DNA of 64,000 nt from Escherichia coli. GTDB lineage: Bacteria; Pseudomonadota; Gammaproteobacteria; Enterobacterales; Enterobacteriaceae. The stretch is taken from assembly GCF_030013595.1 (NCBI RefSeq), contig NZ_CP122768.1; one strand, 5' to 3'. Shown here one piece after another: positions 5,512-29,698 of the stretch (its first letter is position 1; each line of letters starts with the position of its first letter). The notes beneath the pieces are model-generated. The model saw only the letters and a list, made by a program, of their open reading frames with translations. It was not told where the DNA came from and ran no database searches. Made by a program: the position numbers and the translations under genes.

Positions 5512-8500
5512 TTAACCGCTAATCTGCTCCATCGCCTGCAAAATACGCTTATCTGAAATCGGATAAGGCGTACCAAGTTGTTGAGCGAAGTAACTAACGC
5601 GCAGCTCTTCTATCATCCAGCGGATCTCTTTCACGTCTTCATCCTCACGACGTGCGGGCGGCAGTTTGTTGATCCATTGCTGCCACGCCTGCTGGACGTT
5701 TTCGACTTTCAGCATCTGAGCACGGTCACGATGCGGATCAACCGCCAGTTTTTCCAGTCGTTTTTCAATCGCCTGCAAATAACGCAGCGTGTCGCCCAGC
5801 CGTTTAAAACCGTTGCCAGTGACAAAACCGCGATACACCAACCCGCCCATCTGCGCTTTGATGTCAGAAAGCCCCAGCGCCATAGTCATATCCACCCGCC
5901 CTTTCAGGCGTTTGTTGATATTGAAGACTGCAGTAAGGATTTGCTCGACCTGCTTCGCAATATCCACCACCGTGTCGTTCAGTTCAGCGCGGACTTTTTC
6001 ATGCAGCGCAGCAAAGCCTTCTTCCGTCCAGACCGGGCCACCATTGGCGTCGATCAGTTGATCCACACCGCAGGAGATACAGTCGTCGATCAGCTCCAGC
6101 ACTTTGCCATACGGGTTAAAGTACAGCCCCAGCTTGGCTTTGTTTGGCAACTTCTCATGCAAATATTTGATTGGCGAGGGAATATTCAGCAGCAGTAGAC
6201 GGCGAAGACCGTTCCACATTGCCTGCTTTTGTTCCAGCGGATTATCAAACAGTTTGATCGCCACGCTGTCGCGTTCATCCACTAGCGCTGGCCACGCCTT
6301 CACTTTATAGTTGCCACGCTTCTGTTCGTAGCTTTCCGGCAGCTGACCAAAACTCCAGATATGTAAGCCGCTCTGCTCGATACCGTCATCCGCCACCGCA
6401 GACAGCGTTTCCTGCACTTTGCCTTTCAGCGCATCTTTCAGATCTTGTAGAGAGCGCCCTTCTTTTAGCTTCTTGTTTTTGTCATCCACCACGCGGAAGG
6501 TGATTTTCAGGTGATCAGGCACCTGATCCCAGTGCCAGTCTTCGCGGTCAACGGTAACGCCGGTCATCCGCCGTAACTCGCGCTCAAGGCTGTCGAGCAA
6601 CGGTAACTCCAGCGGTGTGACGCGGCCTAAAAACGCTTCGGCGTAGTTTGGCGCGGGCACAAAATTACGGCGTACCGGTTTCGGCAACGATTTAATCAAT
6701 GCGATGATCAGTTCACGACGCAGGCCGGGGATTTGCCATTCAAACCCGCTCTCTTCTACCTGATCAAGCAGCGGCAGCGGAATATGCACGGTCACACCGT
6801 CCGCGTCCGCGCCTGGCTCAAACTGATAGCTCAAACGCAGCTTGAGATTGCCCTGATGCCAGAAGTTCGGATAATCCAGCTTGCTGATTTTTTCCGCCCC
6901 TTCTTTGATCAACATGCTCTTTTCAAAGTTGAGCAAATCAGGCGTTTCGCGGCTGACTTTTTTCCACCAGCTGTCGAAGTGACGTGCGGAGATTACATCG
7001 TGGCTGATGCGCTGGTCGTAGAACTCAAACAACGTTTCGTCATCAACCAGAATATCGCGGCGACGTGATTTGTGTTCCAGCTCTTCCACTTCGGCCCGCA
7101 GTTTCAGGTTTTCACGGAAGAATGCGTGACGCGTCTGCCAGTCACCTTCCACCAGCGCGTGGCGAATAAAGAGTTCACGACATAACGCCGGATCGATCTG
7201 GCTGTAGTTGACCTTACGCGCAGCAACAATCGGCAAACCATAAACAGTGACTTTTTCCGTTGCCATCACCGCGCCCTGCGCCCGTTCCCAGTGCGGTTCG
7301 CTGTAGGTGCGTTTAATCAAATGCTGAGCAACGGGTTCTACCCATTCAGGGTCGATACGTGCCGCAATGCGCCCCCACAGGCGGCTGGTTTCTACCAGTT
7401 CCGCCACCATTACCCATTTCGGCGGCTTTTTAAATAAGCCGGAACCGGGGAAAATGGAGAAACGCGCGTTACGTGCGCCGGTATATTCTTGTTTATCGGC
7501 ATCTTTCATGCCGATATGGGAAAGCAAACCGGTCAGTAAGGCGATGTGAATTTCGCGATACTCCGCCGGTTCGCTGTTAACCGGAATGCCAAGTTCTTTC
7601 ACTACCTGACGCAACTGGGTGTAGATATCCTGCCATTCGCGCACGCGCAGATAGTTGAGATAATCGGTACGACACAGGCGACGGAAGGCGTTAGAAGAAA
7701 GCGCCTTTTGCTGCTCGCCGAGATAATTCCACAGATTTACAAACGCGAGGAAGTCGGATTCTTTGTCGTGGAAGCGGCGATGTTTTTCGTCCGATGCCTG
7801 CTGTCTATCCATCGGACGCTCGCGCGGATCCTGAATGGAGAGCGCGGACGTGATAATCATCGCCTCACGCACGCAGCCATGTTTTTGCGCTTCCAGCACC
7901 ATACGCGCCAGACGTGGGTCGACAGGCAACTGCGAGAGCTGGCGACCGAGCGGCGTCAGTTTATAGGCGCTGGCCTGTTCATCCGTGGTGATCGCGCCCA
8001 GTTCTTCGAGCAGACGCACGCCATCCTGGATATTGCGTTTATCCGGTGCTTCTACAAACGGGAATGCGGCGATATCGCCCAACCCCAGCGCGGTCATCTG
8101 TAAAATAACCGAGGCCAGGTTGGTACGCAGAATCTCCGGATCGGTAAACTCCGGGCGCGAGAGGAAATCGTCTTCGGAATAGAGACGAATACAGATCCCT
8201 TCGGACACACGACCACAGCGGCCTTTACGCTGATTGGCAGACGCCTGCGAAATGGGCTCAATCGGCAAACGCTGCACTTTAGTGCGATAGCTGTAGCGGC
8301 TGATACGCGCCGTACCTGGGTCGATAACGTATTTAATCCCCGGTACGGTCAGCGACGTTTCCGCGACGTTGGTCGCCAGCACAATGCGCCGTCCACTGTG
8401 CGACTGGAACACGCGGTTCTGTTCGCTGTTCGAAAGCCGCGCATAAAGCGGCAAGATTTCGGTATGGCGTAAGTTCAGCTTGTTCAGCGCATCGGCGGTA

Positions 8501-9414
8501 TCGCGAATTTCCCGCTCACCACTCATAAAGATCAGAATGTCGCCAGGGCTTTCCTGACTCAGTTCGTCTACGGCGTCAAAAATCGCCTGCAACTGATCGC
8601 GCTCGGTGTCATCGGCTTCTTCAACAATCGGGCGATAGCGCACTTCCACCGGATAGGTCCGACCGGAGACTTCGATAATCGGCGCATTATTAAAGTGGCG
8701 CGAAAAGCGTTCCGGGTCGATAGTCGCGGAAGTGATAATGATTTTTAGGTCAGGACGCCGCGGCAGCAACTCTTTCAAATAGCCGAGCAGAAAATCGATA
8801 TTCAGGCTACGTTCGTGCGCTTCGTCAATAATGATAGTGTCGTACTGCATCAGCAGGCGGTCTTGCTGGATCTCCGCCAGCAGGATACCGTCGGTCATCA
8901 GCTTGACCATCGTGTTATCACTTACGTGATCGCTGAAACGCACTTTGTAACCGATGCAACCGCCCGGCTCCGTTTTCAGCTCTTCCGCAATACGGTTCGC
9001 CACCGTTCGTGCCGCCAGGCGACGCGGTTGGGTATGACCGATCAGCCCTTTAATCCCGCGCCCCAGCTCCATACAGATTTTCGGTAGCTGAGTCGTTTTA
9101 CCGGAACCGGTTTCCCCGGCGACGATCACCACCTGGTGATCACGAATCGCGTCGAGAATGTCCTGCTTTTTCTGACTAACCGGCAAATTGTCGGGATAAG
9201 TGATTTCCGGTCGTGCCGCTTCACGCAGCAGTACTTTCCCTGCCGCCTGGTCAATCTCTTTCGCCATCTCCTGGAAAATGGCCTGTTGTGCATCAGGATT
9301 TTTAACCTTCTTAACACCGTGCAGACGGCGAGAAAAACGCTGTCTGTCGCGCAGCATCAGCGAATCCAGCCGCTGCTGCAAGGCCGTAAAGGTCAATTTT
9401 TGTTGTTCTGTCAT
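5512..9414 (-). CDS. hrpA: ATP-dependent RNA helicase HrpA (DEAH-box)
   Basis: 1300-aa ORF with Walker A GETGSGKTTQ and DEAH box (IIIDEAHERS). Confidence 0.95.
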   Translation of the reverse strand: MTEQQKLTFTALQQRLDSLMLRDRQRFSRRLHGVKKVKNPDAQQAIFQEMAKEIDQAAGKVLLREAARPEITYPDNLPVSQKKQDILDAIRDHQVVIVAGETGSGKTTQLPKICMELGRGIKGLIGHTQPRRLAARTVANRIAEELKTEPGGCIGYKVRFSDHVSDNTMVKLMTDGILLAEIQQDRLLMQYDTIIIDEAHERSLNIDFLLGYLKELLPRRPDLKIIITSATIDPERFSRHFNNAPIIEVSGRTYPVEVRYRPIVEEADDTERDQLQAIFDAVDELSQESPGDILIFMSGEREIRDTADALNKLNLRHTEILPLYARLSNSEQNRVFQSHSGRRIVLATNVAETSLTVPGIKYVIDPGTARISRYSYRTKVQRLPIEPISQASANQRKGRCGRVSEGICIRLYSEDDFLSRPEFTDPEILRTNLASVILQMTALGLGDIAAFPFVEAPDKRNIQDGVRLLEELGAITTDEQASAYKLTPLGRQLSQLPVDPRLARMVLEAQKHGCVREAMIITSALSIQDPRERPMDRQQASDEKHRRFHDKESDFLAFVNLWNYLGEQQKALSSNAFRRLCRTDYLNYLRVREWQDIYTQLRQVVKELGIPVNSEPAEYREIHIALLTGLLSHIGMKDADKQEYTGARNARFSIFPGSGLFKKPPKWVMVAELVETSRLWGRIAARIDPEWVEPVAQHLIKRTYSEPHWERAQGAVMATEKVTVYGLPIVAARKVNYSQIDPALCRELFIRHALVEGDWQTRHAFFRENLKLRAEVEELEHKSRRRDILVDDETLFEFYDQRISHDVISARHFDSWWKKVSRETPDLLNFEKSMLIKEGAEKISKLDYPNFWHQGNLKLRLSYQFEPGADADGVTVHIPLPLLDQVEESGFEWQIPGLRRELIIALIKSLPKPVRRNFVPAPNYAEAFLGRVTPLELPLLDSLERELRRMTGVTVDREDWHWDQVPDHLKITFRVVDDKNKKLKEGRSLQDLKDALKGKVQETLSAVADDGIEQSGLHIWSFGQLPESYEQKRGNYKVKAWPALVDERDSVAIKLFDNPLEQKQAMWNGLRRLLLLNIPSPIKYLHEKLPNKAKLGLYFNPYGKVLELIDDCISCGVDQLIDANGGPVWTEEGFAALHEKVRAELNDTVVDIAKQVEQILTAVFNINKRLKGRVDMTMALGLSDIKAQMGGLVYRGFVTGNGFKRLGDTLRYLQAIEKRLEKLAVDPHRDRAQMLKVENVQQAWQQWINKLPPARREDEDVKEIRWMIEELRVSYFAQQLGTPYPISDKRILQAMEQISG

Positions 9415-9605
9415 AACGTTAGTGGGCAGTAGGCTGCCTGATTAATTTTCTTTTAAATGATAGATATAGAGTACCACATCGCGGCTTTCTATGCGTTGTT
9501 CAATAAATTCGAACATAGGCTTCGATTTATTGCGCTATCTCTGTGGCAGGATTGTGAATAAAGTGTCAGCAAGCAACGGGGCATCGCCCATTCAAACATC
9601 TATAA

Positions 9606-10220
<615 letters not shown>

Positions 10221-10273
10221 CCGGACACGATCTTGATGTGGACTGTAGATATTCAGTCCACATCTCAATCCGC

Positions 10274-13280
<3,007 letters not shown>

Positions 13281-13352
13281 CGCTGTATTATCACTGGTGG
13301 TAAAAAAATGTTCCCCAGGGATGCGTGAATTTTACATTTTCTCTATTTTCCT

Positions 13353-14249
13353 TCAGTAACAGCAGTAGCGAATAAAATAAAAAAATACCGGAGCGGTGAA
13401 AATTAATGAGTCAATCCTGTCAAGGAGTCCGCCATGTCCTGGTAATAGTTTTCCACTATCTTTAACACCAATATCTCGTTTGATGGCTGACATCACTACA
13501 TCGCCGCAAAAACCACTAATACCAATTAACAAACCCGCTAATAATGCCTGTAATGTATCTAGCGGTGTCAGCAACGGTCCAATAATCAGTGACGCAATCA
13601 TGGTGGTGATTACGCCGCCCATCAGACCTTCCAATGTTTTTCCCGGGCTGACTTTAGGGACCACTTTTCTTCTGCCGCAGGATTTTCCCCATAAATACTG
13701 TGCAATATCGTTTGACTCGGTTAATGCCAAAAGAAATAACACCAGTAACGCCCCGCCCTGGATATTTGTGGTTGGCAACATTAATAACCAGGCGGCATGA
13801 CTCAAGGCGAAAACGGTCATTATCCAGCCACAAAAAATGGCGCTCACGGTATGCAGAAAACCGGAGGGGTCACCCACTAAAACTCGCCAGGTGGCTAATA
13901 TCAGAAACCCAGCCAAAGGTATAAATAACAGAAACAGCTCAAAGCAATTAAAACCGATAAGCAAATAGTTAAGAGGAATACCCCAATATAACCAACGCGG
14001 AAAATGTACAGATATAAGCGTACAATATTCTTTCAATGCCAGAAAACTTATCAGCGCAAAAAACGTCAACGTCATCCAGCGTGGACCTGAAATCACCATT
14101 GAAAAACAAATGACGATGCCCCACCAGGTACGAATACGTAATGTAACTTCATCCCCTTTTCTCTCCGGTAACCGCCATACCAGAAAACGGTTTATCAGCG
14201 TTGCTAAAATTAACAACGCGAAAAGTGTTGCCAGAGATTTTTCCAGCAT
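13353..14249 (-). CDS. ynbB: CDP-diglyceride synthetase-family membrane protein
   Basis: 298-aa polytopic membrane protein; CdsA-like C-terminal signature. Confidence 0.8.
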   Translation of the reverse strand: MLEKSLATLFALLILATLINRFLVWRLPERKGDEVTLRIRTWWGIVICFSMVISGPRWMTLTFFALISFLALKEYCTLISVHFPRWLYWGIPLNYLLIGFNCFELFLLFIPLAGFLILATWRVLVGDPSGFLHTVSAIFCGWIMTVFALSHAAWLLMLPTTNIQGGALLVLFLLALTESNDIAQYLWGKSCGRRKVVPKVSPGKTLEGLMGGVITTMIASLIIGPLLTPLDTLQALLAGLLIGISGFCGDVVMSAIKRDIGVKDSGKLLPGHGGLLDRIDSLIFTAPVFFYFIRYCCY

Positions 14250-14854
14250 TATCTTTCAGCGCTCATAAGAAGCACACTCCGACAACGATTAATCGCAGTC
14301 CAGAGAAGCAGAATTGAAGTAATGCTCCATAAAAGATTATTCCATTGCATCCATTGTGGATAAATGGCAATGGCCAGCCCCCACAAACCAAATATTAACG
14401 CGCGATCGCTTTTGCCAAATGGACCGACATAACTACGAATACCGTTAATCGTCTGCGCGAGTAAACCGCAAAACTCGGTCAATATGGTGCAAAATAACAT
14501 GAGTATCACGAGTGATGCATTACTTTCAGGTAAAAATAAAAACGGTAAATAGAGCGCAATATCGGAAATAACATCGCCAGTCTCATTCAAAATCGCCCCA
14601 AGACGTGTTTGCTGATTGCACTCACGCGCCAACATGCCATCCAGCGCATTGAGTGCCATACGAATAAAAAGCACGATGGGCAATAGCAGAAACATGCCAG
14701 GATATGGCACCAACGCCAACAACAAACCGGTGAGAAGAGAAAGTGCCAAAGCGGCAAGTGTGATCTGATTTGCAGACACTTGCAGCTTATGAAGCCAAAA
14801 CATCGTCGGCCTTAACAGCGACTGAAAGAGCGGTTTTATCTGGTAGAGCGTCAT
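14249..14854 (-). CDS. ynbA: CDP-alcohol phosphatidyltransferase-family membrane protein
   Basis: Membrane protein with D-G-x2-A-R...G...D-x3-D type motif (ALDGMLAR...GDVISD); start ATG overlaps the ynbB stop. Confidence 0.8.
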   Translation of the reverse strand: MTLYQIKPLFQSLLRPTMFWLHKLQVSANQITLAALALSLLTGLLLALVPYPGMFLLLPIVLFIRMALNALDGMLARECNQQTRLGAILNETGDVISDIALYLPFLFLPESNASLVILMLFCTILTEFCGLLAQTINGIRSYVGPFGKSDRALIFGLWGLAIAIYPQWMQWNNLLWSITSILLLWTAINRCRSVLLMSAER

Positions 14855-15024
14855 TATCAATCCTTGATAATTCTGTTTGCGCTATGGTGCATCAATTCCC
14901 CTGACGGAGATATCGCAACACGCCGCTTCATTAAAAATTCAGAATATATCAAGGTATTGGGGACTCACCGTCAGGAATGATTATCCCCAATAAATCAAGT
15001 GGTTAAAAATTATTACGCTGTTAT

Positions 15025-17337
15025 TCAATACAACTCATCAAGTTTTCTCATCGCTTGTTCCCGTATTGCGCGCGTCTTACCGTTAAGCGCCAGCTGCCGA
15101 ACTAAATCCAGTTCAGGGTTAACAAGCTCTAACGCCAGCAAAGGATCACGTTTCAGCCTCGCCTTTAATACATCAACTGGAAAACGGGGATTATTCATCG
15201 CCACAATCCACCACTCGGGATCAATTTCTGCCGCCAGTACTGCAGGCGGTGTGTGGCGGTTGCTAAGTGCGCCGAACTTGAAAAATGTGAGATTGCTTTT
15301 CGCCAGTGTACTCCACCATATACGATCCGGTTGTTTTGCCAGTACATCCAGTTGTGCTAACGCATCGGGGTCTAGTGCATAATATACACGTAACGCTTCG
15401 TTAACCTGCGCACGGGAACTGTTTTCCTGCCTCAGAAAAAACTTCGCCAAAATATCATTGCGTGGCGTGTTTTGCTGTAATTCCTTGAGAACAACAGCGG
15501 GTAAATTATCCCAACTAATTAATGCACTCTCTAAAAAGTCCCAGCCTTCCGAACGTATCAGAGAGGTGGCATTTAATAGCATCTGGTCATCAACTTCACC
15601 GTGGCTAATCAGCTCAGACAAAATCATATCAGCGCTGGTTTCATATGCTGCAGAATCTGCTTTCGGATTATTTTTTCGATGCGATAAAGCGCGATGCCAA
15701 ATTTTTTGTTTCATCGCCGTACTCAGATACTGATTTTTCGCCAGATTACTCCACCCCGCAGGATCGTTGAAACGTGTCAATAACCGTTGTAAAGCGGCGT
15801 CAGAGTGAATTACCTGCATATCCTGACAGCAAAAATAGGCAGGAAATTTTTTCTCCATCTTTTTAACAAAATTAAACTGTAAGTTATCTGGCAATGCTAA
15901 AAATAACACACGTATTAGATCATCGTCATTCTCGAATTTTTGGTGTAAATATACTGCTATTTTGTCACTCTCTTGTGGCGTCATCCGCAACAATTGACCA
16001 TGGTGTTTCATCTCTGCCAGCTTTGACGCTAAGCTTGTGACAACATCGTTTGATGAATCGTTCGCCAACTGCATTGCCTGATTGTAGGTGAGTTGTCCTC
16101 CAGCACCGACCTGACGAATAGAGAAATCATCACTGCGGATATAGCCATCAATAATGGATTCGGGCAATAACCACGCATCTTTATAAAGCTCCTGAATGAT
16201 CATATCCCAATCTCTTTTCGCCAGAGTCATGACGATATCCAGAGGGAGATTTTCACGTAGCGCAAGATTCAACGGACCGACACCATCAGGTAGATGACTC
16301 ATTCGCGTCATTATTTCGACAGAGAGCGGTTCACGGTCGAGCAACCCCAGAACAACAGGCTGGTAACCCAATTGCTGATCGGTCAACTCCAGAATCTCAT
16401 TGTCAGGCATATATCTCGCCATACTTGCAATCGTTTGTCCATCATTGCTATTAATAAGTTGTTTGCGTAGGTTAGCTGAAATTCCTTTAAGCCTTGGGAG
16501 AGTTCGCATTACGGCAAGATCAAATGTCGCAATGTCTCGTCCTTCAAATGCAGCAACTTTGCCTTCATCCAGCATTTGCAATTCCTGCACTAACTCAGGA
16601 GAAGGCTTAGGGCGAAACAGCGCTTCTTTTTTCATCTGATTACAGACATTCCCTGCCATGCGAATATTGCTTCGCTTAAAAATTTCTTTCAGAGCATCTT
16701 CATCATTTATTAGGCCCCAATAATATGCATCAGGATTTATTATCGCCAGCGCTTTTTTGACATTTTCAGTGTCATTTTTGTCACTCGCACGGACCATGAA
16801 TTCACTATTTGTCGAAGACGCAACAACAGGTGCAATTATGTCATTGATAAATATCCCACGCGCATTAATACTCCCCTTAATCGTAGACGGATTATCGTAA
16901 TATGAGTCGATAAATACCAGTCCACTTGCATTTATCGAACCGGTAATTAACAGTGGTGAATCCGTAACTATATTCGTTGCCGTCACATCACCGAGAATAA
17001 CCCATGGATTAGAAAGAGAGAAAGTGGAAATATTACCTTTGACTGTCAAATTGCCAAGAACAATCAATTTTTGATTACTCTCTATATTACCTTCTACCAC
17101 TAAATCGCCACGATGCACTTTCCAGTCCGATGCAGATAAACCGAAGGGGACAAGATTCACGCTACTGTTGATAGCTTGTTCAACTTGTTGTTTATCTTCA
17201 GCGGTAGCCGCAGAAAAAAATGGTTCAATATCAACTGCATTTGCAACACATCGAAGTTCCGCCTGTACTGGAAGACTCAGCATAAACAGGGGAAGTAAAC
17301 CTATCCAGCTGCAAATCCTGGGCTTAAACATATGCAC
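15025..17337 (-). CDS. ydbD: large secreted/periplasmic protein YdbD
   Basis: 770-aa ORF with N-terminal signal peptide; position between ynbA and the IS200 copy; a start two codons downstream is also possible. Confidence 0.8.
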   Translation of the reverse strand: MHMFKPRICSWIGLLPLFMLSLPVQAELRCVANAVDIEPFFSAATAEDKQQVEQAINSSVNLVPFGLSASDWKVHRGDLVVEGNIESNQKLIVLGNLTVKGNISTFSLSNPWVILGDVTATNIVTDSPLLITGSINASGLVFIDSYYDNPSTIKGSINARGIFINDIIAPVVASSTNSEFMVRASDKNDTENVKKALAIINPDAYYWGLINDEDALKEIFKRSNIRMAGNVCNQMKKEALFRPKPSPELVQELQMLDEGKVAAFEGRDIATFDLAVMRTLPRLKGISANLRKQLINSNDGQTIASMARYMPDNEILELTDQQLGYQPVVLGLLDREPLSVEIMTRMSHLPDGVGPLNLALRENLPLDIVMTLAKRDWDMIIQELYKDAWLLPESIIDGYIRSDDFSIRQVGAGGQLTYNQAMQLANDSSNDVVTSLASKLAEMKHHGQLLRMTPQESDKIAVYLHQKFENDDDLIRVLFLALPDNLQFNFVKKMEKKFPAYFCCQDMQVIHSDAALQRLLTRFNDPAGWSNLAKNQYLSTAMKQKIWHRALSHRKNNPKADSAAYETSADMILSELISHGEVDDQMLLNATSLIRSEGWDFLESALISWDNLPAVVLKELQQNTPRNDILAKFFLRQENSSRAQVNEALRVYYALDPDALAQLDVLAKQPDRIWWSTLAKSNLTFFKFGALSNRHTPPAVLAAEIDPEWWIVAMNNPRFPVDVLKARLKRDPLLALELVNPELDLVRQLALNGKTRAIREQAMRKLDELY

Positions 17338-17359
17338 TCCATGCCATTAAAAAAGAATA

Positions 17360-18068
17360 AATATCCTCCGGCATAGCCGGAGGTTTTTCAAATGCGCCTG
17401 TAAGGCTCTGTTACCAGCCGCGCCCTAACAGGCGCATACGATCTGACATTTGCATTCAACTTCGTTACTTACGGCCCGTAAACGGGCTGCCCGGATATGG
17501 AATCGATAACTGCTCCCCCATTTTATCCTCTTCAAGCTGGTGCTTTATGTAGTCCTGTATCTTCGCCGTGTTCTTACCCACCGTATCGACATAGTACCCT
17601 CGGCACCAGAACTCCCTGTTTCTGTATTTGAATTTCAAATCCCCAAACTGCTCGTAAAGCATCAGACTGCTTTTCCCTTTCAGATATCCCATAAAGCCGG
17701 ATACGCTCATTTTGGGTGGGATTTCCACAAGCATATGGATATGATCTGCGCAGCACTCTGCTTCCAGAATCCGTACGCTTTTCCACTCACACAGCTTTCT
17801 CAAAATACTGCCTATCGCCCTACGCTTCTCTCCGTAAAACGCCAGTCTTCGGTATTTCGGCGCAAAAACTATGTGATATTTACAGTTCCAGCGGGTGTGC
17901 GCTAAGCTCTTTTCGTCCCCCATTGGGACCCCCTTTTGATTTCTTGTTTGACACTTGCAGTTGCCAGACCGCAAGGTGTTTTAACAAATCAAAAGGGGTT
18001 TTAATAACTGGCTCAAAGCTGAAAGCTTTCCGGAACCCCCAGCCTAGCTGGGGGTTTTCTGTGCACAA
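17360..18068 (-). mobile_element. IS200 insertion sequence (IS200/IS605 family), boundaries approximate
   Basis: Contains IS200-type TnpA; perfect palindrome aacccccagcctagctgggggtt (18036-18058) upstream of tnpA and a second inverted repeat (about 17388-17438) downstream, as expected for the structured, repeat-less ends of IS200. Confidence 0.6.
17465..17923 (-). CDS. tnpA: IS200 transposase TnpA (HUH/Y1 single-strand transposase)
   Basis: 152-aa product MGDEKSLAHTRWNCKYHIVFAPKYRR... with HUH motif (ADHIHML) and catalytic Tyr region; recalled IS200 TnpA sequence is near-identical. Confidence 0.9.
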   Translation of the reverse strand: MGDEKSLAHTRWNCKYHIVFAPKYRRLAFYGEKRRAIGSILRKLCEWKSVRILEAECCADHIHMLVEIPPKMSVSGFMGYLKGKSSLMLYEQFGDLKFKYRNREFWCRGYYVDTVGKNTAKIQDYIKHQLEEDKMGEQLSIPYPGSPFTGRK

Positions 18069-18072
18069 ATAA

Positions 18073-18103
18073 AAAACCGCAACCTGTATCAGCGTTGCGG
18101 TTT
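18073..18103 (-). terminator. rho-independent terminator downstream of paaY
   Basis: On the minus strand, stem aaccgcaac...gttgcggtt followed by TTTTTTATTT. Confidence 0.5.
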
Positions 18104-18145
18104 GTGTATCACATGCTAAAAATTAGAACGTCCAGCATCAGGACG

Positions 18146-18736
18146 TTACTGTTTCGGTCGCAGATTCTCATCAAATACCAGGCGCTGCCTGCCAGGTTCA
18201 ACTTCCCGCAATGGCTCGACTTGATGTAACGTCTGCTTACAGCGTGTCACCAGCACCTGGTACTCATGCGCACCCTGCTTTTTCCATGCCAACTCCTGCT
18301 CACTGAGTTCACGAATCGCTTTCGCCGGGCTGCCGACAATCAGGTAATTAGCTGGCATTTCTGCTTTGGCTTTCACAAATGCGGATGCGCCAACAATGCT
18401 GTTCTCGCCAATCACCGCACCGTCTATCACTACCGCGTTCATTCCCACTAATGCATTGCGGCGGATAATGCAGCCGTGAAGGATAGCGCTATGACCAATA
18501 TGTCCATCTTCTTCCACGACAGTATCCTGCTCGGGAAAACCGTGCATAACGCAATTATCCTGAATGTTCGCGCCATCTTTCACCACGATACGACCAAAAT
18601 CGCCACGCAGGCTGGCATTTGGCCCAACGTAAACACCCTTGCCGAGAATAACATCGCCGATCAATACCGCTGTCGGATGAACAAAACTCTCTTCTGGCAC
18701 AACCGGAGTCAGACCGTCTATCTGATAAATTGGCAT
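18146..18736 (-). CDS. paaY: hexapeptide-repeat (gamma-carbonic-anhydrase-like) protein PaaY
   Basis: 196-aa ORF with left-handed beta-helix hexapeptide repeats; recalled PaaY length and N-terminus ([11 protein letters not shown]) match. Confidence 0.85.
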
Positions 18737-18843
18737 AACGCGTCCTGTTCAATATTCAAGCCGCCAAAACGTTGAAAATACAGGCTTCCCGGCGCAGGCA
18801 GTTCACCGACCGAGGTTTCACCTTTTTCACTAACGAACGCTAA

Positions 18844-19077
18844 AGCAGCAGGCGCTACGCGCTGATAAAGTTTGCCGATAAAGGTTTGGTGGTCGCGCAA
18901 TATATTCGTAACCGTCGTCTCGATTTTTGTGCTGATGCGATTCGCCATGCCGCAGATGATGAAAAACTGGCAGGTATTGGCTTTCATTGGGGATTTTCCG
19001 ATCAGAGTCATTTTTCAACGGTATTTAAGCAACGCTTTGGGATGACGCCAGGCGAGTATCGACGTAAATTCCGCTAA
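18844..19077 (+). pseudogene. feaR: 3' remnant of AraC-family regulator feaR (C-terminal HTH only)
   Basis: In-frame stop at 18841; remaining frame encodes only the AraC-type second helix-turn-helix (IGFHWGFSDQSHFSTVFKQRFGMTPGEYRRKF); convergent with ydbL as in K-12. Confidence 0.6.
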
Positions 19078-19248
19078 CTAATTCGCGTTGCATGTACAGC
19101 AACGCGAATTAGTTAAAACAGATATTTGACTATGCATTTTTCAGGGCGAAAGGCAATTTGACAGGAATTTTTGAATATTCACCTTGTTTCCGGAAAATAG
19201 AATAATCGCCTTCTCCTGTAGCGTTATCCCGATATTGCGGTTTTGCTA

Positions 19249-19575
19249 TTAAAATTTTCGCACCCATTTACCGTTTATCCCTTGTACATATTCCCCCGGT
19301 TTAGCCCGAGCTACGAGCTTTTGCCCGGCGAGTTTCGCGATATCATCTACCGAGACATTATTTTGCTTTGCCAGTTGTTGGTAACTCGCTTTACGTTCGG
19401 CATTAATGTCGTTTACTAATTTCTCTGTTTCAGCATCTGTTTTCAGCGCAACCAGATAACCATAAAATGTTTCCCCTACCCGCCCCTGAGTTCTGGCTTC
19501 ATCCAGAGTCAATGCCATTACATTGCTGCTTACAAGCCCAACAAGAAACGCACAAAGAAGTAATGTTTTCTTCAT
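19249..19575 (-). CDS. ydbL: DUF1318-family periplasmic protein
   Basis: Signal peptide MMKKTLLLCAFLVGLVSSNVMA; start at internal Met giving 108 aa and ending 8 bp before the ynbE stop. Confidence 0.8.
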   Translation of the reverse strand: MKKTLLLCAFLVGLVSSNVMALTLDEARTQGRVGETFYGYLVALKTDAETEKLVNDINAERKASYQQLAKQNNVSVDDIAKLAGQKLVARAKPGEYVQGINGKWVRKF

Positions 19576-19582
19576 CATCGCC

Positions 19583-19768
19583 TCAGAAAAGATCGCTACG
19601 AGTCTCAAGCAGCTCTTCGACATCTTTGTCTGCCTTGATGATGATCTCATGCTCAATTTTAACGTTCATATTGATAGTGATCGGTTCCTTAGGTGCAGCG
19701 ACTTCAATGCGAGGCGTACAGCCAACCAGCATAAAAGATGACGTCAACGCAGCCAGTAAAATTTTCAT
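19583..19768 (-). CDS. ynbE: small lipoprotein
   Basis: 61-aa ORF with lipobox LVGC; overlaps the ydbH stop by 4 bp. Confidence 0.8.
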   Translation of the reverse strand: MKILLAALTSSFMLVGCTPRIEVAAPKEPITINMNVKIEHEIIIKADKDVEELLETRSDLF

Positions 19769-22404
19769 TGTTTTTCCTCACACTCTTTTCCTTGCGGACA
19801 GTCATTTCCCGGCAGACGTGCGTTCTGCTCCAACCATGCCTGGAGATTATCGCCAAAGCGTAAACTGCGCCACAGCGTAAAAATATTCTCTTCATGATGG
19901 TAATTAAGGTTTACCGTACCGCTTTTACCATCAACGCGACTGGTACCTGTAATGTTGGCCTGCATGGTTAATAAACCGAGATTATCTAAGTTAATTTTTG
20001 TCGATGAACGGCTAATTTCCATATAGCGCAACCAGTTAATTGCTGAACCCGCAGTCATATTATCTTTTACCACCGCATCAGCAGTGTCTTTATCCAGCCG
20101 CAAGGTCATTGGCCCACTATTTGCCAGCCAGCCATCTTTCACTATCCATTTTTCATTGTTTAGCCATAACGGCAATGCACCACTAAATGCCCCGGACATG
20201 GCGAATTGTTTCGGATTGACGGCGCTAACCAGTTCGCTGGATGAGAGATTATTCAGCCGCAACAGCGCCGGGTCATGTTGCGGCATGCGTAATTGTTTCA
20301 TCAGCACGTTACCGCCTAACACATCGACGCTAACATCAGTCAACAGCAATGGTTCTTCTTCTGTCCACGGATAGCGCCCTTGCAAATCAGCCGTAATATT
20401 TTTCGCTGTCACCAGATTAATCACTTCGGCAATTCGCAACGTAACGGGGCCGCGAGTCCCCAGATGCCAGGCTCCATCGGCAAAACGGAAAGGCAGGACA
20501 AAATCGACACCGTTAACCTGATTATCTGGCATCCAGGCACTACCGCCTTTCAACACGCCGTGCCCTCCCGCGCGGAATCCTTGTTCAGGCGCAGCAGAAA
20601 ATGCAACCTGAGCATACAGTTCACCATCGCGTAAGTTCATCTTCCAGTCGGGTGGCACCAGCGGCTGGAATACAGTCAGTGATTGTTTAGGCCACCAGGC
20701 GTTACCGCGCAGACGAATACCGTCCCAGCGACCATTTACCCGAACCGGGCCAATCTCACCAGCATGTAAATCGCCTTTAAAGAGGAAATACGTCGGATCG
20801 CGTCCATCGACGCTAAATTTTAAGGTTGATGGCGGTAACACACTGCCGCCAGTGAACAGCGTTTGCCCGGCGTCCAGTGACAGCGCGCCGCTAAAGGAGG
20901 GATGCTGTGCGTCACGTACCCAGACGACGGGCTTGTCGAGAATTAGTCGCGGCTTTTCTACCGTCATCGTACCGTATTGTAACTGGTCGAAACCGGTGGA
21001 GAGATCGGTCAGCGTAATCGTGCTGTCATGCCACTCACCCTTTCCTGCGACATCCCAGGTGGCATTCATCGGTGTAAAACTGCCTTTTCCCCAGTAGCGC
21101 CACTGCCAGCGGCCAGCGTCAGGGAGAAAATCATTCGCCAGTCCATCCATATGCAGCACGAAATCGCCCAGTTCATTTTCATGCGCCTGCAAAATGGCCT
21201 GCAAACGTCCGTCAACACCACGTTGGGTGACTTTTACACCCGCTAAAGGCCAGCGGATTTCATCGATGTCCAGCGAATCAATGACTCTTCCCTTTGAACG
21301 AAGTAACGCGCCAGGCTCAAAGGCCAGCGTTGGGTCAGTCAGACTTCCGCTTAGCTTCGCAGGTAAACGGGCATATAAAATGAGGTCCGCCTGTTTCGCT
21401 TCACCGGTCAGCTGCAGAGGCAGCTGGCTGTTATCCATGCTTAATTTTCCTGGGCCAAAATTAAGCACCGCGTTGCCTTTACCCGCTTGCCCCTGGGTCA
21501 GCACACTCAGTCGTCCGCTGACCAGAGCGTTCTCGAGCCCTGCCTGCCAGTTGTCGACTTTGACACCCAGTCTGCCACTCAAAGGAAAACCTGCATACGG
21601 CCAGCTCCAGCGACCATCGCTTACAGTCAATTGTTGGCGAGTAATTTGCCACGGCAAATCGAGCAACGGATCGCCATTATCCCGTGCCAGCACAATCAAT
21701 TGCCCGCTATTTTCCTGCCAGTCCAGCTCGGCATCCACCAGTGAAGGCTCCTGCGGCAAGTTTAACGTCGCAGTAGCATGACCACTTACCGGAAGTCCAT
21801 CCGGCACGAGCGGCATAGTAAATTCCCCCACCAGTTTTATCGGTGGCTGATTTTCAAACGCGGCGACATTCAGTTCGCTGACTGTAAGTTGTTGCCCTTT
21901 AAGCTGGCCTTGAAATTTAACTTTTTCGCCCTGATAACGCAGTTGCTGGATATCAGAGGTTAACGCGAGAGAGAGTTTTCCCTGCCACTCCTGCCAGGGA
22001 GAAAAAATCAGTTTATCGATATTGATCCAGGTGTTAGGCAACATGGCCTGCCACTGCGCGAGGGTTTTTGGAGCGGCAGGCGATTGCTCCGTCTGCGGCA
22101 ATTTCGCCAGACAAGCAGAATCAAGTTCTACCGTGCCGACGTTCAATAACCAGCGGCTCGGATGTGAAAGGCTGGCGTTGGTGATATGCGCAAGCTGACA
22201 ATCTCCCACCAGATAACGGAGATCGGGAATGATTAAACCTTTACGCGTAATGCGTGGGCTTTCATCTAATGCAATACGTGTCCCGAGCGGTAGCCAGATG
22301 CCCGCCAGCGTGGGAACCCACAAGCCGAGCGTCATCAGCAGCGTCAACGGCACAAGAATAATCAGTAATAACAGCGCGAGAACGGCTTTATATTTACCCA
22401 GCAT
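19765..22404 (-). CDS. ydbH: AsmA-like/DUF748-family large envelope protein
   Basis: 879-aa ORF with N-terminal TM anchor; ydbH-ynbE-ydbL operon arrangement. Confidence 0.85.
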   Translation of the reverse strand: MLGKYKAVLALLLLIILVPLTLLMTLGLWVPTLAGIWLPLGTRIALDESPRITRKGLIIPDLRYLVGDCQLAHITNASLSHPSRWLLNVGTVELDSACLAKLPQTEQSPAAPKTLAQWQAMLPNTWINIDKLIFSPWQEWQGKLSLALTSDIQQLRYQGEKVKFQGQLKGQQLTVSELNVAAFENQPPIKLVGEFTMPLVPDGLPVSGHATATLNLPQEPSLVDAELDWQENSGQLIVLARDNGDPLLDLPWQITRQQLTVSDGRWSWPYAGFPLSGRLGVKVDNWQAGLENALVSGRLSVLTQGQAGKGNAVLNFGPGKLSMDNSQLPLQLTGEAKQADLILYARLPAKLSGSLTDPTLAFEPGALLRSKGRVIDSLDIDEIRWPLAGVKVTQRGVDGRLQAILQAHENELGDFVLHMDGLANDFLPDAGRWQWRYWGKGSFTPMNATWDVAGKGEWHDSTITLTDLSTGFDQLQYGTMTVEKPRLILDKPVVWVRDAQHPSFSGALSLDAGQTLFTGGSVLPPSTLKFSVDGRDPTYFLFKGDLHAGEIGPVRVNGRWDGIRLRGNAWWPKQSLTVFQPLVPPDWKMNLRDGELYAQVAFSAAPEQGFRAGGHGVLKGGSAWMPDNQVNGVDFVLPFRFADGAWHLGTRGPVTLRIAEVINLVTAKNITADLQGRYPWTEEEPLLLTDVSVDVLGGNVLMKQLRMPQHDPALLRLNNLSSSELVSAVNPKQFAMSGAFSGALPLWLNNEKWIVKDGWLANSGPMTLRLDKDTADAVVKDNMTAGSAINWLRYMEISRSSTKINLDNLGLLTMQANITGTSRVDGKSGTVNLNYHHEENIFTLWRSLRFGDNLQAWLEQNARLPGNDCPQGKECEEKQ

Positions 22405-22611
22405 GGGTAGTTAATATCCTGATTTAGCGAAAAATTAAGCATTCAATACGGGTATTGTGGCATGTTTAACCGTTCAGTTGAAGGTTGCGCCTACACTAAG
22501 CATAGTTGTTGATGAATTTTTCAATATCGCCATAGCTTTCAATTATATTTGAAATTTTGTAAAATATTTTTAGTAGCTTAAATGTGATTCAACATCACTG
22601 GAGAAAGTCTT

Positions 22612-23601
22612 ATGAAACTCGCCGTTTATAGCACAAAACAGTACGACAAGAAGTACCTGCAACAGGTGAACGAGTCCTTTGGCTTTGAGCTGGAATTTTT
22701 TGACTTTCTGCTGACGGAAAAAACCGCTAAAACTGCCAATGGCTGCGAAGCGGTATGTATTTTCGTAAACGATGACGGCAGCCGCCCGGTGCTGGAAGAG
22801 CTGAAAAAGCACGGCGTTAAATATATCGCCCTGCGCTGTGCCGGTTTCAATAACGTCGACCTTGACGCGGCAAAAGAACTGGGGCTGAAAGTAGTCCGTG
22901 TTCCAGCCTATGATCCAGAAGCCGTTGCTGAACACGCCATCGGTATGATGATGACGCTGAACCGCCGTATTCATCGCGCGTATCAGCGTACTCGTGACGC
23001 CAACTTCTCTCTGGAAGGTCTGACCGGCTTTACTATGTATGGCAAAACGGCAGGCGTTATCGGTACCGGTAAAATCGGTGTGGCGATGCTGCGCATTCTG
23101 AAAGGTTTTGGTATGCGTCTGCTGGCGTTCGATCCGTATCCAAGTGCGGCGGCACTGGAACTCGGTGTGGAGTATGTCGATCTGCCAACCCTGTTCTCTG
23201 AATCAGACGTTATCTCTCTGCACTGCCCGCTGACACCGGAAAACTACCATCTGTTGAACGAAGCCGCCTTCGATCAGATGAAAAATGGCGTGATGATCGT
23301 CAATACCAGTCGCGGTGCATTGATTGATTCTCAGGCGGCAATTGAAGCGCTGAAAAATCAGAAAATTGGTTCGTTGGGTATGGACGTGTATGAGAACGAA
23401 CGCGATCTGTTCTTTGAAGACAAATCCAACGACGTGATCCAGGATGACGTGTTCCGTCGTCTGTCTGCCTGCCACAACGTGCTGTTTACCGGGCACCAGG
23501 CATTCCTGACAGCAGAAGCACTGACCAGTATTTCTCAGACTACGCTGCAAAACTTAAGCAATCTGGAAAAAGGCGAAACCTGCCCGAACGAACTGGTTTA
23601 A
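22612..23601 (+). CDS. ldhA: fermentative D-lactate dehydrogenase
   Basis: 329-aa D-isomer 2-hydroxyacid dehydrogenase with NAD-binding GVIGTGKIG motif; begins MKLAVYSTKQYDKKYLQQVN. Confidence 0.95.
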   Translation: MKLAVYSTKQYDKKYLQQVNESFGFELEFFDFLLTEKTAKTANGCEAVCIFVNDDGSRPVLEELKKHGVKYIALRCAGFNNVDLDAAKELGLKVVRVPAYDPEAVAEHAIGMMMTLNRRIHRAYQRTRDANFSLEGLTGFTMYGKTAGVIGTGKIGVAMLRILKGFGMRLLAFDPYPSAAALELGVEYVDLPTLFSESDVISLHCPLTPENYHLLNEAAFDQMKNGVMIVNTSRGALIDSQAAIEALKNQKIGSLGMDVYENERDLFFEDKSNDVIQDDVFRRLSACHNVLFTGHQAFLTAEALTSISQTTLQNLSNLEKGETCPNELV

Positions 23602-23607
23602 TCTTGC

Positions 23608-23630
23608 CGCTCCCCTGCATTCCAGGGGAG
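23608..23630 (+). terminator. hairpin terminator after ldhA
   Basis: gctcccctg-cattc-caggggagc perfect inverted repeat directly after the ldhA stop. Confidence 0.45.
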
Positions 23631-23711
23631 CTGATTCAGATAATCCCCAATGACCTTTCATCCTCTATTCTTAAAATAGTCCTGAGTCAGAAACTGTAAT
23701 TGAGAACCACA

Positions 23712-24134
23712 ATGAAGAAAGTAGCCGCGTTTGTTGCGCTAAGCCTGCTGATAGCGGGATGTGTAAGTAATGACAAAATTGCTGTAACCCCAGAACAGCT
23801 ACAGCATCATCGCTTTGTGCTGGAAAGCGTAAACGGTAAGCCCGTGACCAGCGATAAAAATCCGCCAGAAATCAGCTTTGGTGAAAAGATGATGATTTCC
23901 GGCAGCATGTGTAACCGCTTTAGCGGTGAAGGCAAACTGTCTAATGGTGAACTGACAGCCAAAGGGCTGGCAATGACCCGTATGATGTGCGCTAACCCGC
24001 AGCTTAATGAACTCGATAACACCATTAGCGAAATGCTGAAAGAAGGTGCACAAGTGGATCTGACCGCGAACCAGTTAACGCTGGCGACCGCGAAACAGAC
24101 ATTAACTTATAAGCTGGCGGATTTAATGAATTAA
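23712..24134 (+). CDS. hslJ: heat-shock lipoprotein HslJ (META domain)
   Basis: 140-aa product MKKVAAFVALSLLIAGC with lipobox. Confidence 0.85.
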   Translation: MKKVAAFVALSLLIAGCVSNDKIAVTPEQLQHHRFVLESVNGKPVTSDKNPPEISFGEKMMISGSMCNRFSGEGKLSNGELTAKGLAMTRMMCANPQLNELDNTISEMLKEGAQVDLTANQLTLATAKQTLTYKLADLMN

Positions 24135-24397
24135 TAGCTGCCACAGCTCCCGGCGGCAAGTGACTGTTCGCTACAGCGTTTGCCGTTGGGTAATGCACAC
24201 ATCCCAATCGCCGTACCATCCAGTTGACGGGCAACAGAAAGCGAACCGCCGATCATTGCACAACTTGCTTCTCCACTACTGGACATCGACGCTTTTAAAC
24301 CTGGCGCTACGTGCGCCGCAGTCGCCTGCTGAACAGGTTCACTACTACACGCCGACAATAATAAAGCGGCACACCCTACCCAAAACGCTGCTCGCAT
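24131..24397 (-). CDS. ydbJ: DUF333-family small secreted protein
   Basis: 88-aa ORF with signal peptide and lipobox-like LLSAC; convergent with hslJ. Confidence 0.7.
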   Translation of the reverse strand: MRAAFWVGCAALLLSACSSEPVQQATAAHVAPGLKASMSSSGEASCAMIGGSLSVARQLDGTAIGMCALPNGKRCSEQSLAAGSCGSY

Positions 24398-24670: not shown

Positions 24671-27600
24671 ATGATTACTATTGACGGTAATGGCGCGGTT
24701 GCTTCGGTGGCGTTTCGCACCAGTGAAGTTATCGCCATCTACCCTATTACCCCCAGTTCCACAATGGCAGAACAGGCTGATGCCTGGGCCGGAAACGGCT
24801 TGAAGAACGTTTGGGGAGACACACCACGCGTGGTTGAAATGCAGTCGGAAGCGGGTGCTATCGCTACCGTGCATGGCGCTTTGCAGACGGGTGCCCTTTC
24901 AACATCGTTTACGTCATCGCAGGGTTTGCTGCTGATGATCCCGACGCTGTACAAACTGGCAGGCGAACTGACGCCATTTGTCCTGCATGTAGCGGCACGT
25001 ACCGTTGCCACACATGCACTCTCTATTTTTGGCGATCATTCCGACGTTATGGCGGTGCGCCAGACGGGTTGCGCGATGTTGTGTGCGGCTAACGTCCAGG
25101 AAGCGCAAGACTTTGCTCTCATTTCGCACATCGCAACGCTGAAGAGCCGCGTGCCATTTATTCATTTCTTTGATGGTTTCCGCACGTCCCACGAAATCAA
25201 TAAAATTGTCCCGCTGGCCGATGACACTATTCTTGATCTCATGCCGCAGGCCGAAATTGATGCTCATCGCGCCCGGGCGCTCAACCCGGAACATCCGGTG
25301 ATCCGCGGTACGTCCGCCAATCCTGACACTTATTTCCAGTCTCGCGAAGCCACCAACCCGTGGTACAACGCAGTTTACGACCATGTTGAACAGGCGATGA
25401 ATGATTTCGCTGCCGCGACAGGTCGTCAGTATCAGCCGTTTGAGTATTACGGGCATCCGCAAGCGGAACGGGTGATTATCCTGATGGACTCTGCCATTGG
25501 CACCTGTGAAGAAGTCGTTGATGAATTGCTAACCCGTGGCGAAAAAGTCGGCGTGCTGAAAGTTCGCCTGTACCGTCCCTTCTCCGCCAAACACTTGCTA
25601 CAAGCTCTGCCGGGATCCGTACGCAGCGTGGCGGTACTGGACAGAACCAAAGAACCCGGTGCCCAGGCTGAACCGCTCTATCTGGATGTGATGACCGCAC
25701 TGGCAGAAGCCTTTAATAATGGCGAGCGCGAAACCCTGCCCCGTGTCATTGGTGGGCGCTATGGTCTTTCATCCAAAGAATTTGGCCCGGACTGTGTACT
25801 GGCGGTATTTGCCGAGCTCAACGCGGCTAAACCGAAAGCGCGCTTTACGGTTGGTATTTACGATGATGTGACCAATCTGTCACTGCCGTTGCCGGAAAAC
25901 ACCCTGCCAAACTCGGCGAAACTTGAAGCCTTGTTTTATGGCCTTGGTAGTGATGGCAGCGTTTCCGCGACCAAAAACAATATCAAGATTATCGGTAATT
26001 CCACGCCGTGGTACGCACAGGGCTATTTTGTTTACGACTCCAAAAAGGCGGGCGGCCTGACGGTTTCTCACCTTCGCGTGAGCGAGCAGCCGATTCGTTC
26101 CGCTTATCTGATTTCCCAGGCTGATTTTGTTGGCTGCCACCAGTTGCAGTTTATTGATAAATATCAGATGGCTGAACGTTTAAAACCTGGCGGCATTTTC
26201 CTGCTCAACACACCGTACAGCGCAGATGAAGTATGGTCGCGCTTGCCGCAGGAAGTTCAGGCCGTGTTAAACCAGAAAAAGGCGCGCTTCTATGTGATTA
26301 ACGCGGCGAAAATCGCCCGCGAATGTGGCCTGGCGGCCCGTATTAATACCGTCATGCAGATGGCTTTTTTCCATCTGACGCAAATTCTGCCTGGCGATAG
26401 CGCCCTCGCAGAATTGCAGGGTGCGATTGCCAAAAGTTACAGTAGCAAAGGTCAGGATCTGGTGGAGCGCAACTGGCAGGCTCTGGCGCTGGCGCGTGAA
26501 TCCGTAGAAGAAGTTCCGTTGCAGCCGGTTAATCCGCACAGCGCCAATCGACCGCCTGTGGTTTCCGATGCCGCTCCTGATTTCGTGAAAACCGTTACCG
26601 CGGCGATGCTCGCCGGGCTTGGTGATGCCCTCCCCGTTTCGGCGCTGCCGCCAGACGGCACCTGGCCGATGGGCACCACGCGCTGGGAAAAACGCAATAT
26701 CGCCGAAGAGATCCCCATCTGGAAAGAGGAACTCTGTACCCAATGTAACCACTGCGTCGCCGCTTGCCCACACTCAGCTATTCGCGCAAAAGTGGTACCG
26801 CCTGAAGCGATGGAAAACGCCCCTGCCAGCCTGCATTCGCTGGATGTGAAATCGCGTGATATGCGCGGGCAGAAATATGTCTTGCAGGTGGCACCGGAAG
26901 ATTGCACCGGTTGTAACCTGTGCGTCGAAGTTTGCCCGGCGAAAGACCGTCAGAATCCAGAGATTAAAGCCATCAATATGATGTCGCGGCTGGAACATGT
27001 CGAAGAAGAGAAAATCAATTACGATTTCTTCCTCAACCTGCCAGAAATCGACCGTAGCAAACTGGAACGTATTGATATTCGTACATCGCAGCTGATTACA
27101 CCGCTGTTTGAATATTCCGGTGCTTGCTCCGGTTGTGGCGAGACGCCGTATATTAAATTGCTGACTCAGCTCTATGGCGACCGGATGTTGATCGCTAACG
27201 CCACCGGCTGTTCTTCAATTTATGGCGGTAACCTGCCCTCTACACCGTATACCACCGATACCAACGGTCGTGGACCGGCATGGGCGAACTCGCTGTTTGA
27301 AGATAACGCCGAATTTGGCCTTGGTTTCCGCCTGACGGTCGATCAACACCGTGTCCGCGTGCTGCGTCTGCTGGATCAATTTGCCGATAAAATCCCGGCG
27401 GAATTACTAACTGCGTTGAAATCAGACGCCAAGCCAGAGGTTCGTCGTGAACAGGTTGCAGCTTTACGCCAGCAACTCAACGATGTTGCCGAAGCACATG
27501 AACTGCTACGTGACGCAGATGCACTGGTAGAAAAATCAATCTGGCTGATTGGTGGCGACGGCTGGGCTTACGATATCGGCTTTGGCGGTCTGGATCATGT

Positions 27601-28195: not shown

Positions 28196-28221
28196 ATGCT
28201 CTGGATAAGAATTATCCAATT

Positions 28222-29689: not shown

Positions 29690-29698
29690 ATCCTCCTG

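Follow-up and report, generated by a model that had tools for sequence, protein, structure and literature searches.

Transposition in the IS200/IS605 family depends on an HUH/Y1 transposase, TnpA, that recognises subterminal hairpins on one DNA strand. The recognised strand is excised as a circle and pasted into single-stranded DNA at the replication fork, and no target duplication arises. IS200 itself is often described as almost immobile. The Salmonella IS200 carries a hairpin at nt 12-34, a leader stem at nt 69-138 and the same Shine-Dalgarno sequence as the copy described here (PMC4513863). A Yersinia IS1541 copy lies between pheL and pheA, in the attenuator-terminator region (PMC3082878), and according to a preprint (10.1101/2025.07.22.666184) no sequences are more strongly over-represented upstream of IS200/IS605 elements than terminator-like ones. 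An explicit target rule for IS200 or IS1541 was not found in the literature, which offered this family-level statistic and the one anecdotal pheL-pheA case.

We analysed a 64,000-nucleotide stretch of Escherichia coli DNA (the window; RefSeq assembly GCF_030013595.1, contig NZ_CP122768.1) in which an IS200 copy lies between ydbD and paaY. The copy is of a known kind and is already annotated in RefSeq, and the insertion and the loss of pdxI at this locus are ordinary events. The locus is mildly instructive on two points only, the regularity with which IS200 targets terminators and a pair of junctions specific to one clone.

The IS200 copy and its surroundings

The gap between ydbD and paaY extends from 17338 to 18145. 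The preliminary description had assigned all of this interval to IS200. An IS200 element is indeed present there, but it covers only 17358-18067 on the minus strand (710 bp, left end at 18067 and right end at 17358), and the other 98 bp of the gap are host DNA. The ends were placed by aligning the window to DFL.5 (L001), a relative free of the IS, in which homology to the window halts at 17357 and restarts at 18068. A second line of evidence is that matches at many unrelated places in chromosomes begin at nt 1 and end at nt 710, for example at ybiJ-hcxB, fdnI-yddM, ompX-opgE and htpX-yebQ. The element is a canonical IS200, a minimal member of the IS200/IS605 family.

The tnpA gene (17465-17923, minus strand) is intact and encodes a 152-aa HUH/Y1 single-strand DNA transposase. 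The protein matched the NCBIfam model transpos_IS200 (NF033573; 2e-42, 144 bits against a cut-off of 55) and the Pfam model Y1_Tnp (PF01797; 9e-37), and it is homologous to the solved HUH/Y1 transposases from Sulfolobus, ISHp608 and ISDra2. Alignment to ISHp608 TnpA (2a6m; 3e-19) placed H61/H63 on H64/H66 and Y125 on the catalytic Y127. By this alignment both the HUH motif (H61-I-H63) and the catalytic tyrosine (Y125) are present, and the catalytic set of TnpA is therefore intact. The IS200-type assignment made in the preliminary description thus stood, with no sign that the transposase belongs to another family. We also considered whether it might be a RAYT protein; this was rejected, with a score of 30 bits against the cut-off of 80 for NF047646 (REP_Tyr_transpos), IS200 ends and a multi-copy occurrence. 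No tnpB is present: tnpA is the sole family-typed gene of the element, and the remaining open reading frames overlap it in other frames. The IS200 of the sister genome is 100% identical to the window copy at the DNA level, and its tnpA is annotated as WP_000502112.1.

Both ends of the element have the hairpins expected of the group, as had been claimed from inspection. At the left end, a perfect hairpin with 10-bp arms of 100% complementarity occupies IS nt 12-34 (18034-18056, minus strand). This is the hairpin published as a bidirectional terminator, and it is presumed to be the one that TnpA binds. It is followed by a leader stem-loop region (17930-17998, minus strand) with 16-nt arms that are 94% complementary. 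The stem-loop is of the kind that sequesters the ribosome-binding site, and the art200 antisense region forms part of the same regulatory leader. The Rfam leader model RF01405 (STnc490) matched 17933-18056 on the minus strand with 146 bits (gathering score 56), and the Shine-Dalgarno sequence AAGGGGGT precedes the ATG at IS nt 145. The right-end hairpins (17365-17437, minus strand) consist of a long imperfect palindrome (17392-17437, nt 631-676) and a terminal 8-bp GC hairpin (17365-17383, nt 685-703). The latter lies 7 nt from the IS end, has a stem sequence related to that of the left-end hairpin and scored as terminator-like on both strands. When the ends were folded as single-stranded DNA, the left-end hairpin gave -12.6 kcal/mol (z = -3.3) and the right end z = -5.4, and none of 200 shuffles folded as well at either end.

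Terminal inverted repeats are absent, the two ends (TGTGCACAG... and ...GGATATTTA) being unrelated. No direct repeats flank the element; the T-tract flanks would hide a duplication of 0-1 nt, and the original target is deleted. Judged by its sequence, the copy is intact and apparently functional. By homology to the TnpA proteins of ISHp608 and ISDra2 it would move as the family does, by peel and paste through a single-stranded circular intermediate.

Both flanking genes are intact. ydbD (15025-17331, minus strand, ATG at 17331) encodes 768 aa and is collinear with K-12 ydbD at 96.4% identity. paaY (18146-18736, minus strand, stop at 18146) encodes 196 aa and matched TIGR02287 PaaY (4e-112, 372 bits, cut-off 320). 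As an orphan left over from the paa cluster, it adjoins a paaX fragment. On the ydbD side, the IS right end is followed by the ydbD leader of the host, TTCTTTTTTAATGG... (17338-17357, minus strand), whose junction with the IS is the same in 63 genomes considered below. The IS lies upstream of ydbD, its end 26 nt from the ATG.

On the paaY side, two terminator hairpins lie downstream of paaY within 18068-18145. The one directly 5' of the IS left end is a host intrinsic terminator (18068-18103, minus strand), made up of a hairpin at 18074-18103 and the T-tract TTTTTTATT. The hairpin has 10-bp perfect arms and a single-stranded fold z of -4.6. The terminator matches positions 34006-34070 of the K-12 locus, that is, the end of ydbA and the sequence downstream, and by this match the hairpin is a leftover ydbA 3' terminator common to genomes that lack ydbA. 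With terminator-like hairpins at both IS ends, ydbD is probably insulated from upstream transcription. A promoter scan of the interval returned no sigma-70-like promoter, a result that is uninformative on ydbD expression.

Gene content lost at the locus

Alignment to K-12, which the preliminary description had proposed, resolved the region into three collinear blocks (blastn of the window against K-12 1.44-1.485 Mb, a 45-kb locus) and defined the missing stretches. Positions 25064-35114 of the K-12 locus, which hold ynbG, ydbA with its IS2 and IS30 insertions and pdxI (ydbC), have no counterpart in the window. The reported absence of both ydbA and ydbC was thereby confirmed, and tblastn with PdxI also found no match anywhere in the 64-kb window. 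A second stretch of 17.7 kb is absent as well (6590-24334 of the K-12 locus), comprising the 5' part of feaR, feaB, tynA, paaZ, paaA-K and most of paaX. The 64-kb window contains no second IS200, and the 45-kb K-12 locus contains none at all.

The same description had the element standing in place of both ydbA and ydbC, which proved correct for pdxI (ydbC) but not for ydbA, which is missing independently of the IS. Relative to L001, IS200 stands in for exactly 1,050 bp (L001 3359-4408). The displaced segment comprises the pdxI terminator, pdxI, the pdxI upstream region and a REP-like sequence. IS200 accounts for the loss of pdxI only. The absence of ydbA was examined with a 361-nt query across the junction between paaY and pdxI at a coverage of at least 80%; in genomes that have ydbA the match stops at the ydbA 3' end. 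The ydbA-less junction was present in 2,024 of 5,426 complete genomes (~37%), with or without IS200, and the loss of ydbA is therefore independent of the IS. The junction between the feaR and paaX fragments lies at approximately 18867-18872 of the window, at a short AAC..TT microhomology. It occurs with pdxI intact in the three loci read, and a flank query spanning it was at least 80% covered in 173 genomes. Judged from these junctions, the absence of ydbA and the 17.7-kb deletion from feaR to paaX are older polymorphisms unrelated to the IS.

The strain is likely to be without the PdxI pyridoxal reductase, an enzyme of vitamin B6 salvage. This loss, together with that of the whole phenylacetate/phenylethylamine catabolic cluster, is relevant to metabolic models of the strain.

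Junctions within terminators and the history of the locus

Both junctions of the window copy lie within the T-tracts of two intrinsic terminators that point in the same direction. Read in the orientation of the element, GCGGTTTTTTATT precedes the left end and TTCTTTTTTAATGG follows the right end. The IS-free upstream site reads GCGGTTTTTTATT GCCGG..., and the IS-free downstream site reads ...CCCTTTTGTTTCTTTTTTAATGG. The two T-tracts have in common a heptamer, TTTT(A/G)TT. In the sister genomes the left junction has one T fewer, which means that the T-tracts are unstable or that there is a sequencing error, and arguments that turn on a few nucleotides are weakened by it. The three possible orders of events are inseparable by the junction sequences alone.

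Chimeric junction queries were used to locate IS200 positions beside pdxI in other genomes. The arrangement ydbD-IS200C-pdxI-paaY was found in 63 genomes (e.g. strain 104, L005), with CCCTTTTGTT before the IS at the pdxI terminator and TTCTTTTTT after it. The right-end junction of the window is identical to that of these 63 genomes. The converse arrangement, ydbD-pdxI-IS200-paaY, was found in 5 genomes, two of which were read. GMF065 (L004) has the same transposase as the window (WP_000502112.1), and XJ6.1 (L006) has IS200C; the two insertions may not be fully independent events. The orientation of IS200 is identical in all three loci read (L004-L006). The left-end junction of the window falls after T6ATT, 9 nt beyond the stem, whereas L004 and L006 use GCGGTTTTT at the same terminator.

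We compared the flanks of 12 IS200 copies, namely the window copy, L004-L006 and copies at eight unrelated loci. A GC-rich hairpin and a T-run precede the left end on the same strand in every one (12/12), a pattern that we read as an intrinsic terminator belonging to the gene upstream, which is co-oriented. The distance from the stem to the IS left end is 5-7 nt in the other 11 copies and 9 nt in the window, and the right-end flank starts with TT in 11 of the 12. IS200 regularly sits behind terminator hairpins, and this explains the recurrent insertion on both sides of pdxI. Such placement could yield a simple predictive rule for IS200 targets. The GC skew of the window is -0.078 throughout, and the tnpA-sense strand is therefore on the lagging-strand template. 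A bias towards the lagging-strand template in the IS200/IS605 family was reportedly found by Ton-Hoang and colleagues in 2010. A broader proposal would hold that the IS200 target is a terminator hairpin and T-tract on the lagging-strand template, not a fixed tetra- or pentanucleotide, and that adjacent same-direction terminators lead to IS200-associated loss of the intervening gene, possibly in one step by TnpA. In that full form we regard the proposal as very improbable.

For the window itself we favour insertion of IS200 at the pdxI terminator followed by a deletion of pdxI from T-tract to T-tract, a history to which we give about an even chance of being correct. In the first step, IS200 would have entered the stretch between pdxI and ydbD at the T-tract of the pdxI terminator, with the position and orientation that IS200C has in the 63 genomes. 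In the second, a spontaneous 1,050-bp deletion would have fused the T-tract of the ydbA remnant (TTTTATT, just downstream of paaY) to that of pdxI (TTTTGTT). The outcome would be that pdxI is gone and that the IS left end lies directly behind the upstream terminator. A crossover between TTTTATT and TTTTGTT predicts the T6ATT left junction exactly. The right junction is the one seen in the 63 genomes and the left junction is atypical but matches this crossover, and for these reasons insertion followed by deletion is favoured.

This history requires a deletion between imperfect 7-nt repeats 1 kb apart, which is a rare event. The collection contains no genome with the window subtype at the pdxI-terminator site and pdxI kept, as all 63 carry IS200C, so the intermediate is postulated and not observed. 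We asked with a mosaic test whether IS200C could have been the parent on the ydbD side. This was rejected: the 29 differences span nt 151-668, and copies at other loci are 100% identical to the window copy. The window IS is not a mosaic with IS200C, and the intermediate must accordingly have carried the window subtype. We also rejected a route in which IS200 inserted next to paaY and a later deletion stopped exactly at its right end, since the end points of such a deletion share no microhomology.

The main rival is recombination between two IS200 copies. Copies in the same orientation would have occupied both terminators flanking pdxI, and RecA recombination between the 710-bp direct repeats would then have removed pdxI and left a single copy. 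The surviving IS would keep the left junction of the paaY side and the right junction of the ydbD side. Both sites are proven IS200 insertion sites elsewhere (63 genomes on the ydbD side, 5 on the paaY side), and the orientation is always this one. Transposition has been active in this lineage, which has about 12 copies. Direct repeats of 710 bp recombine efficiently, and RecA recombination between two such copies would be far more frequent once both were present. However, no genome has both copies: the two sets add up to 68 records with zero overlap. Rows of "100% coverage" obtained with a double-copy query (IS left end, pdxI and IS right end) were discarded as artefacts, in which a single IS copy had been matched by the left and the right part of the query alike, giving two pieces over 1,760 bp. 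Recombination between two copies would also need a paaY-side insertion between T6ATT and GCC, where the stem is 9 nt away and the right flank begins with GC. Among the 11 copies outside the window the distance to the stem is 5-7 nt and 10 have a TT right flank, and both insertions read at this terminator follow GCGGTTTTT. With three events against two, we consider this route unlikely, though it comes closest to the favoured history.

A lower probability still attaches to the reverse order, in which pdxI was lost first through T-tract microhomology, leaving the hybrid tail T6ATTTTCT6, and IS200 inserted later at the joint or within 1-2 nt of it. pdxI is dispensable and has been lost without an IS elsewhere: in three genomes, of which ETEC4088 was read, the gene is truncated at its 5' end with no IS involved. 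IS200 does target terminator T-tracts. The joined flanks of the sister genome, GCGGTTTTTTAT plus TTCTTTTTT, are equal to the predicted product of TT microhomology. Yet a clean terminator-to-terminator deletion occurs in 0 of 5,426 genomes, and an insertion 9 nt from the stem is as atypical here as in recombination between two copies. The insertion must moreover have coincided with the joint and recreated the right junction of the 63 IS200C genomes. We therefore regard this order as improbable.

Least probable of all, and close to negligible, is a one-step event in which TnpA cut the T-tract of the upstream terminator, treating it as a target or as a left flank, and linked it to the left end of an IS200 already present at the pdxI terminator, freeing the pdxI segment: both break points are T-rich, as is the sequence 5' of every left end examined, and the joint abuts the IS end exactly, without stray bases, but nothing in the sequence requires TnpA-mediated joining. 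To our knowledge no such joining reaction has been described for IS200/IS605 transposases, which counts against it. On the model developed for IS608, each left-end hairpin directs a single left-type cleavage, and two in one complex would be unexpected.

Distribution and comparison with known elements

The element had been described as rare in laboratory E. coli and as a useful strain or lineage marker. IS200 proper is, as far as we know, absent from K-12, and the lack of a copy in the 45-kb K-12 locus agrees with this part of the claim. In natural E. coli, by contrast, IS200 is common. Of 5,426 complete genomes, 2,063 have a full-length copy; the median is 2 places per genome, and the highest number is 35. 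The window subtype was found at an identity of at least 99% in 216 records, and copies in strains N3 and FXCREC043 are 100% identical to it. The sister genome has about 12 IS200 copies. From these copies and the identical ones at other loci we conclude that the subtype was mobile recently; in some E. coli lineages IS200 has thus moved recently, as the copy number of the sister genome and the maximum of 35 places in other genomes indicate.

It is the pair of junctions, and not the element itself, that serves as a marker. Both junctions are shared by only 2 of 5,426 genomes, HCP5S3_I2 and LCP30S3_I5. The two are clonal isolates from pigs (Winchester, UK), and their chromosomes are 1 bp apart in length. 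Over 30 kb, the window and HCP5S3_I2 have 99.95% identity. The next relatives (38 listed), with 98.5-98.9% flank identity, all have pdxI and are free of the IS. The count of two was obtained from a tight junction query together with a flank-only query. A looser query was covered to at least 80% in 66 genomes, and these were not accepted as sharing the arrangement: pieces up to ~1.25 kb apart had been joined, so that genomes with both IS200 and pdxI were counted. The succession of ydbD, IS200 and the paaY terminator marks a very narrow clone and has little importance beyond strain typing.

Among known elements, the closest is IS200C of E. coli (WP_000526135-type), which has the same length as the window copy and is identical to it over nt 1-150 and 669-710. 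The two differ by 27-29 substitutions in nt 151-668 (~96% identity). IS200C shares its terminator T-tract targets with the window copy, and the sites on either side of pdxI are among them. In the loci read, the transposase of the window subtype is WP_000502112.1, which is named only "IS200/IS605 family transposase".

Comparison with Salmonella IS200, which had also been proposed, gave ~92% nucleotide identity between a Salmonella plasmid IS200F copy and the window copy, whose host is E. coli. IS200 (the element of Lam and Roth) and IS200F of Salmonella enterica likewise have a single open reading frame, a length of ~707-710 bp and no terminal inverted repeats. The left terminator (nt 12-34), the leader (~nt 69-138) and AAGGGGGT of Salmonella IS200 match the window copy (PMC4513863), and the Rfam STnc490 model, built on the Salmonella leader, is the one that scores the window at 146 bits. 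IS1541 of Yersinia pestis belongs to the same IS200 group and aligned over its full length with 87% identity, in another host. IS608 (ISHp608) and ISDra2 are related through a homologous HUH/Y1 TnpA, subterminal hairpins at both ends and an active strand on the lagging-strand template. The window copy differs from both in being without tnpB. It also has no defined tetra- or pentanucleotide target of the TTAC or TTGAT kind, and the feature shared by the copies examined is instead a hairpin and a T-run.

The feaR-paaX deletion and other differences in gene content

Comparison with K-12 revealed a 17.7-kb deletion in the window, with one end within feaR and the other within paaX. Through this deletion feaB, tynA, paaZ and paaA-K are gone, and paaY is left as an orphan. 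The remaining paaX' fragment lies on the minus strand (18718-18870) and the feaR' fragment on the plus strand (18886-19077), and a short AAC..TT microhomology is found at their joint (18867-18872). A flank query spanning this joint was at least 80% covered in 173 of the 5,426 complete E. coli genomes searched.

The window also carries a prophage (30490-64000) with genes for tail sheath, portal, large terminase, lytic tail protein and tail fibres. It begins close to the boundary between uspF and ttcA, where Rac sits as the prophage of K-12; no match to it was found within K-12 positions 1.39-1.44 Mb. The prophage is missing from the sister genome HCP5S3_I2, a UK pig isolate that is elsewhere 99.95% identical to the window. 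In the sister genomes nifJ/ydbK is split by ISVsa5 (IS4-like), while the gene is uninterrupted in the window (about 26729-26739). At this point the blast pieces of the window against the sister genome overlap by 11 nt, which fits a duplication of the target in the sister genome.

Loss of ydbA and pdxI and the state of ydbD

The ydbA autotransporter gene is missing from the window (18068-18145), and this is a common polymorphism. In 2,024 of the 5,426 genomes paaY abuts pdxI, and the 3' terminator alone remains of ydbA. A second terminator-like hairpin (18127-18147) overlaps the paaY stop.

The 5' part of pdxI is deleted without any IS in three genomes, ETEC4088, EC261 and 2017.18.04CC. The locus was read in ETEC4088, where paaY and paaX are both retained. 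Loss of pdxI has therefore occurred repeatedly and by differing routes. In strain 104, in which IS200C sits between ydbD and pdxI, the annotation of ydbD (positions 1539-2884 of the extracted locus, L005) records a frameshift and an internal stop. For many other genomes with the ydbD-IS200C-pdxI arrangement, the gene under the match is named only 'DUF2773 domain-containing protein' and not ydbD.

IS200 placement, junction and leader

A co-oriented intrinsic terminator, consisting of a GC hairpin and a T-run, directly precedes all 12 IS200 copies examined (loci L004-L014 plus the window copy, whose terminator lies at 18068-18103), and TT begins the right flank in 11 of the 12. Our literature search found no paper stating terminator placement as a rule for IS200 itself. 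At the left junction the window (18068-18070) reads TTATT| vs TTAT| at the sister-genome locus (L002, 4068-4070), so that the window has one more T than the two sister genomes. The extra T is either a real slip in the T-tract or a sequencing difference.

On the tnpA-sense strand of the element, 17933-18056 scores 146 bits with the Rfam model STnc490. In the literature STnc490/art200 is described as antisense to the tnpA 5'UTR (PMC4513863), and the leader represented by the Rfam family seems to be the sense one.
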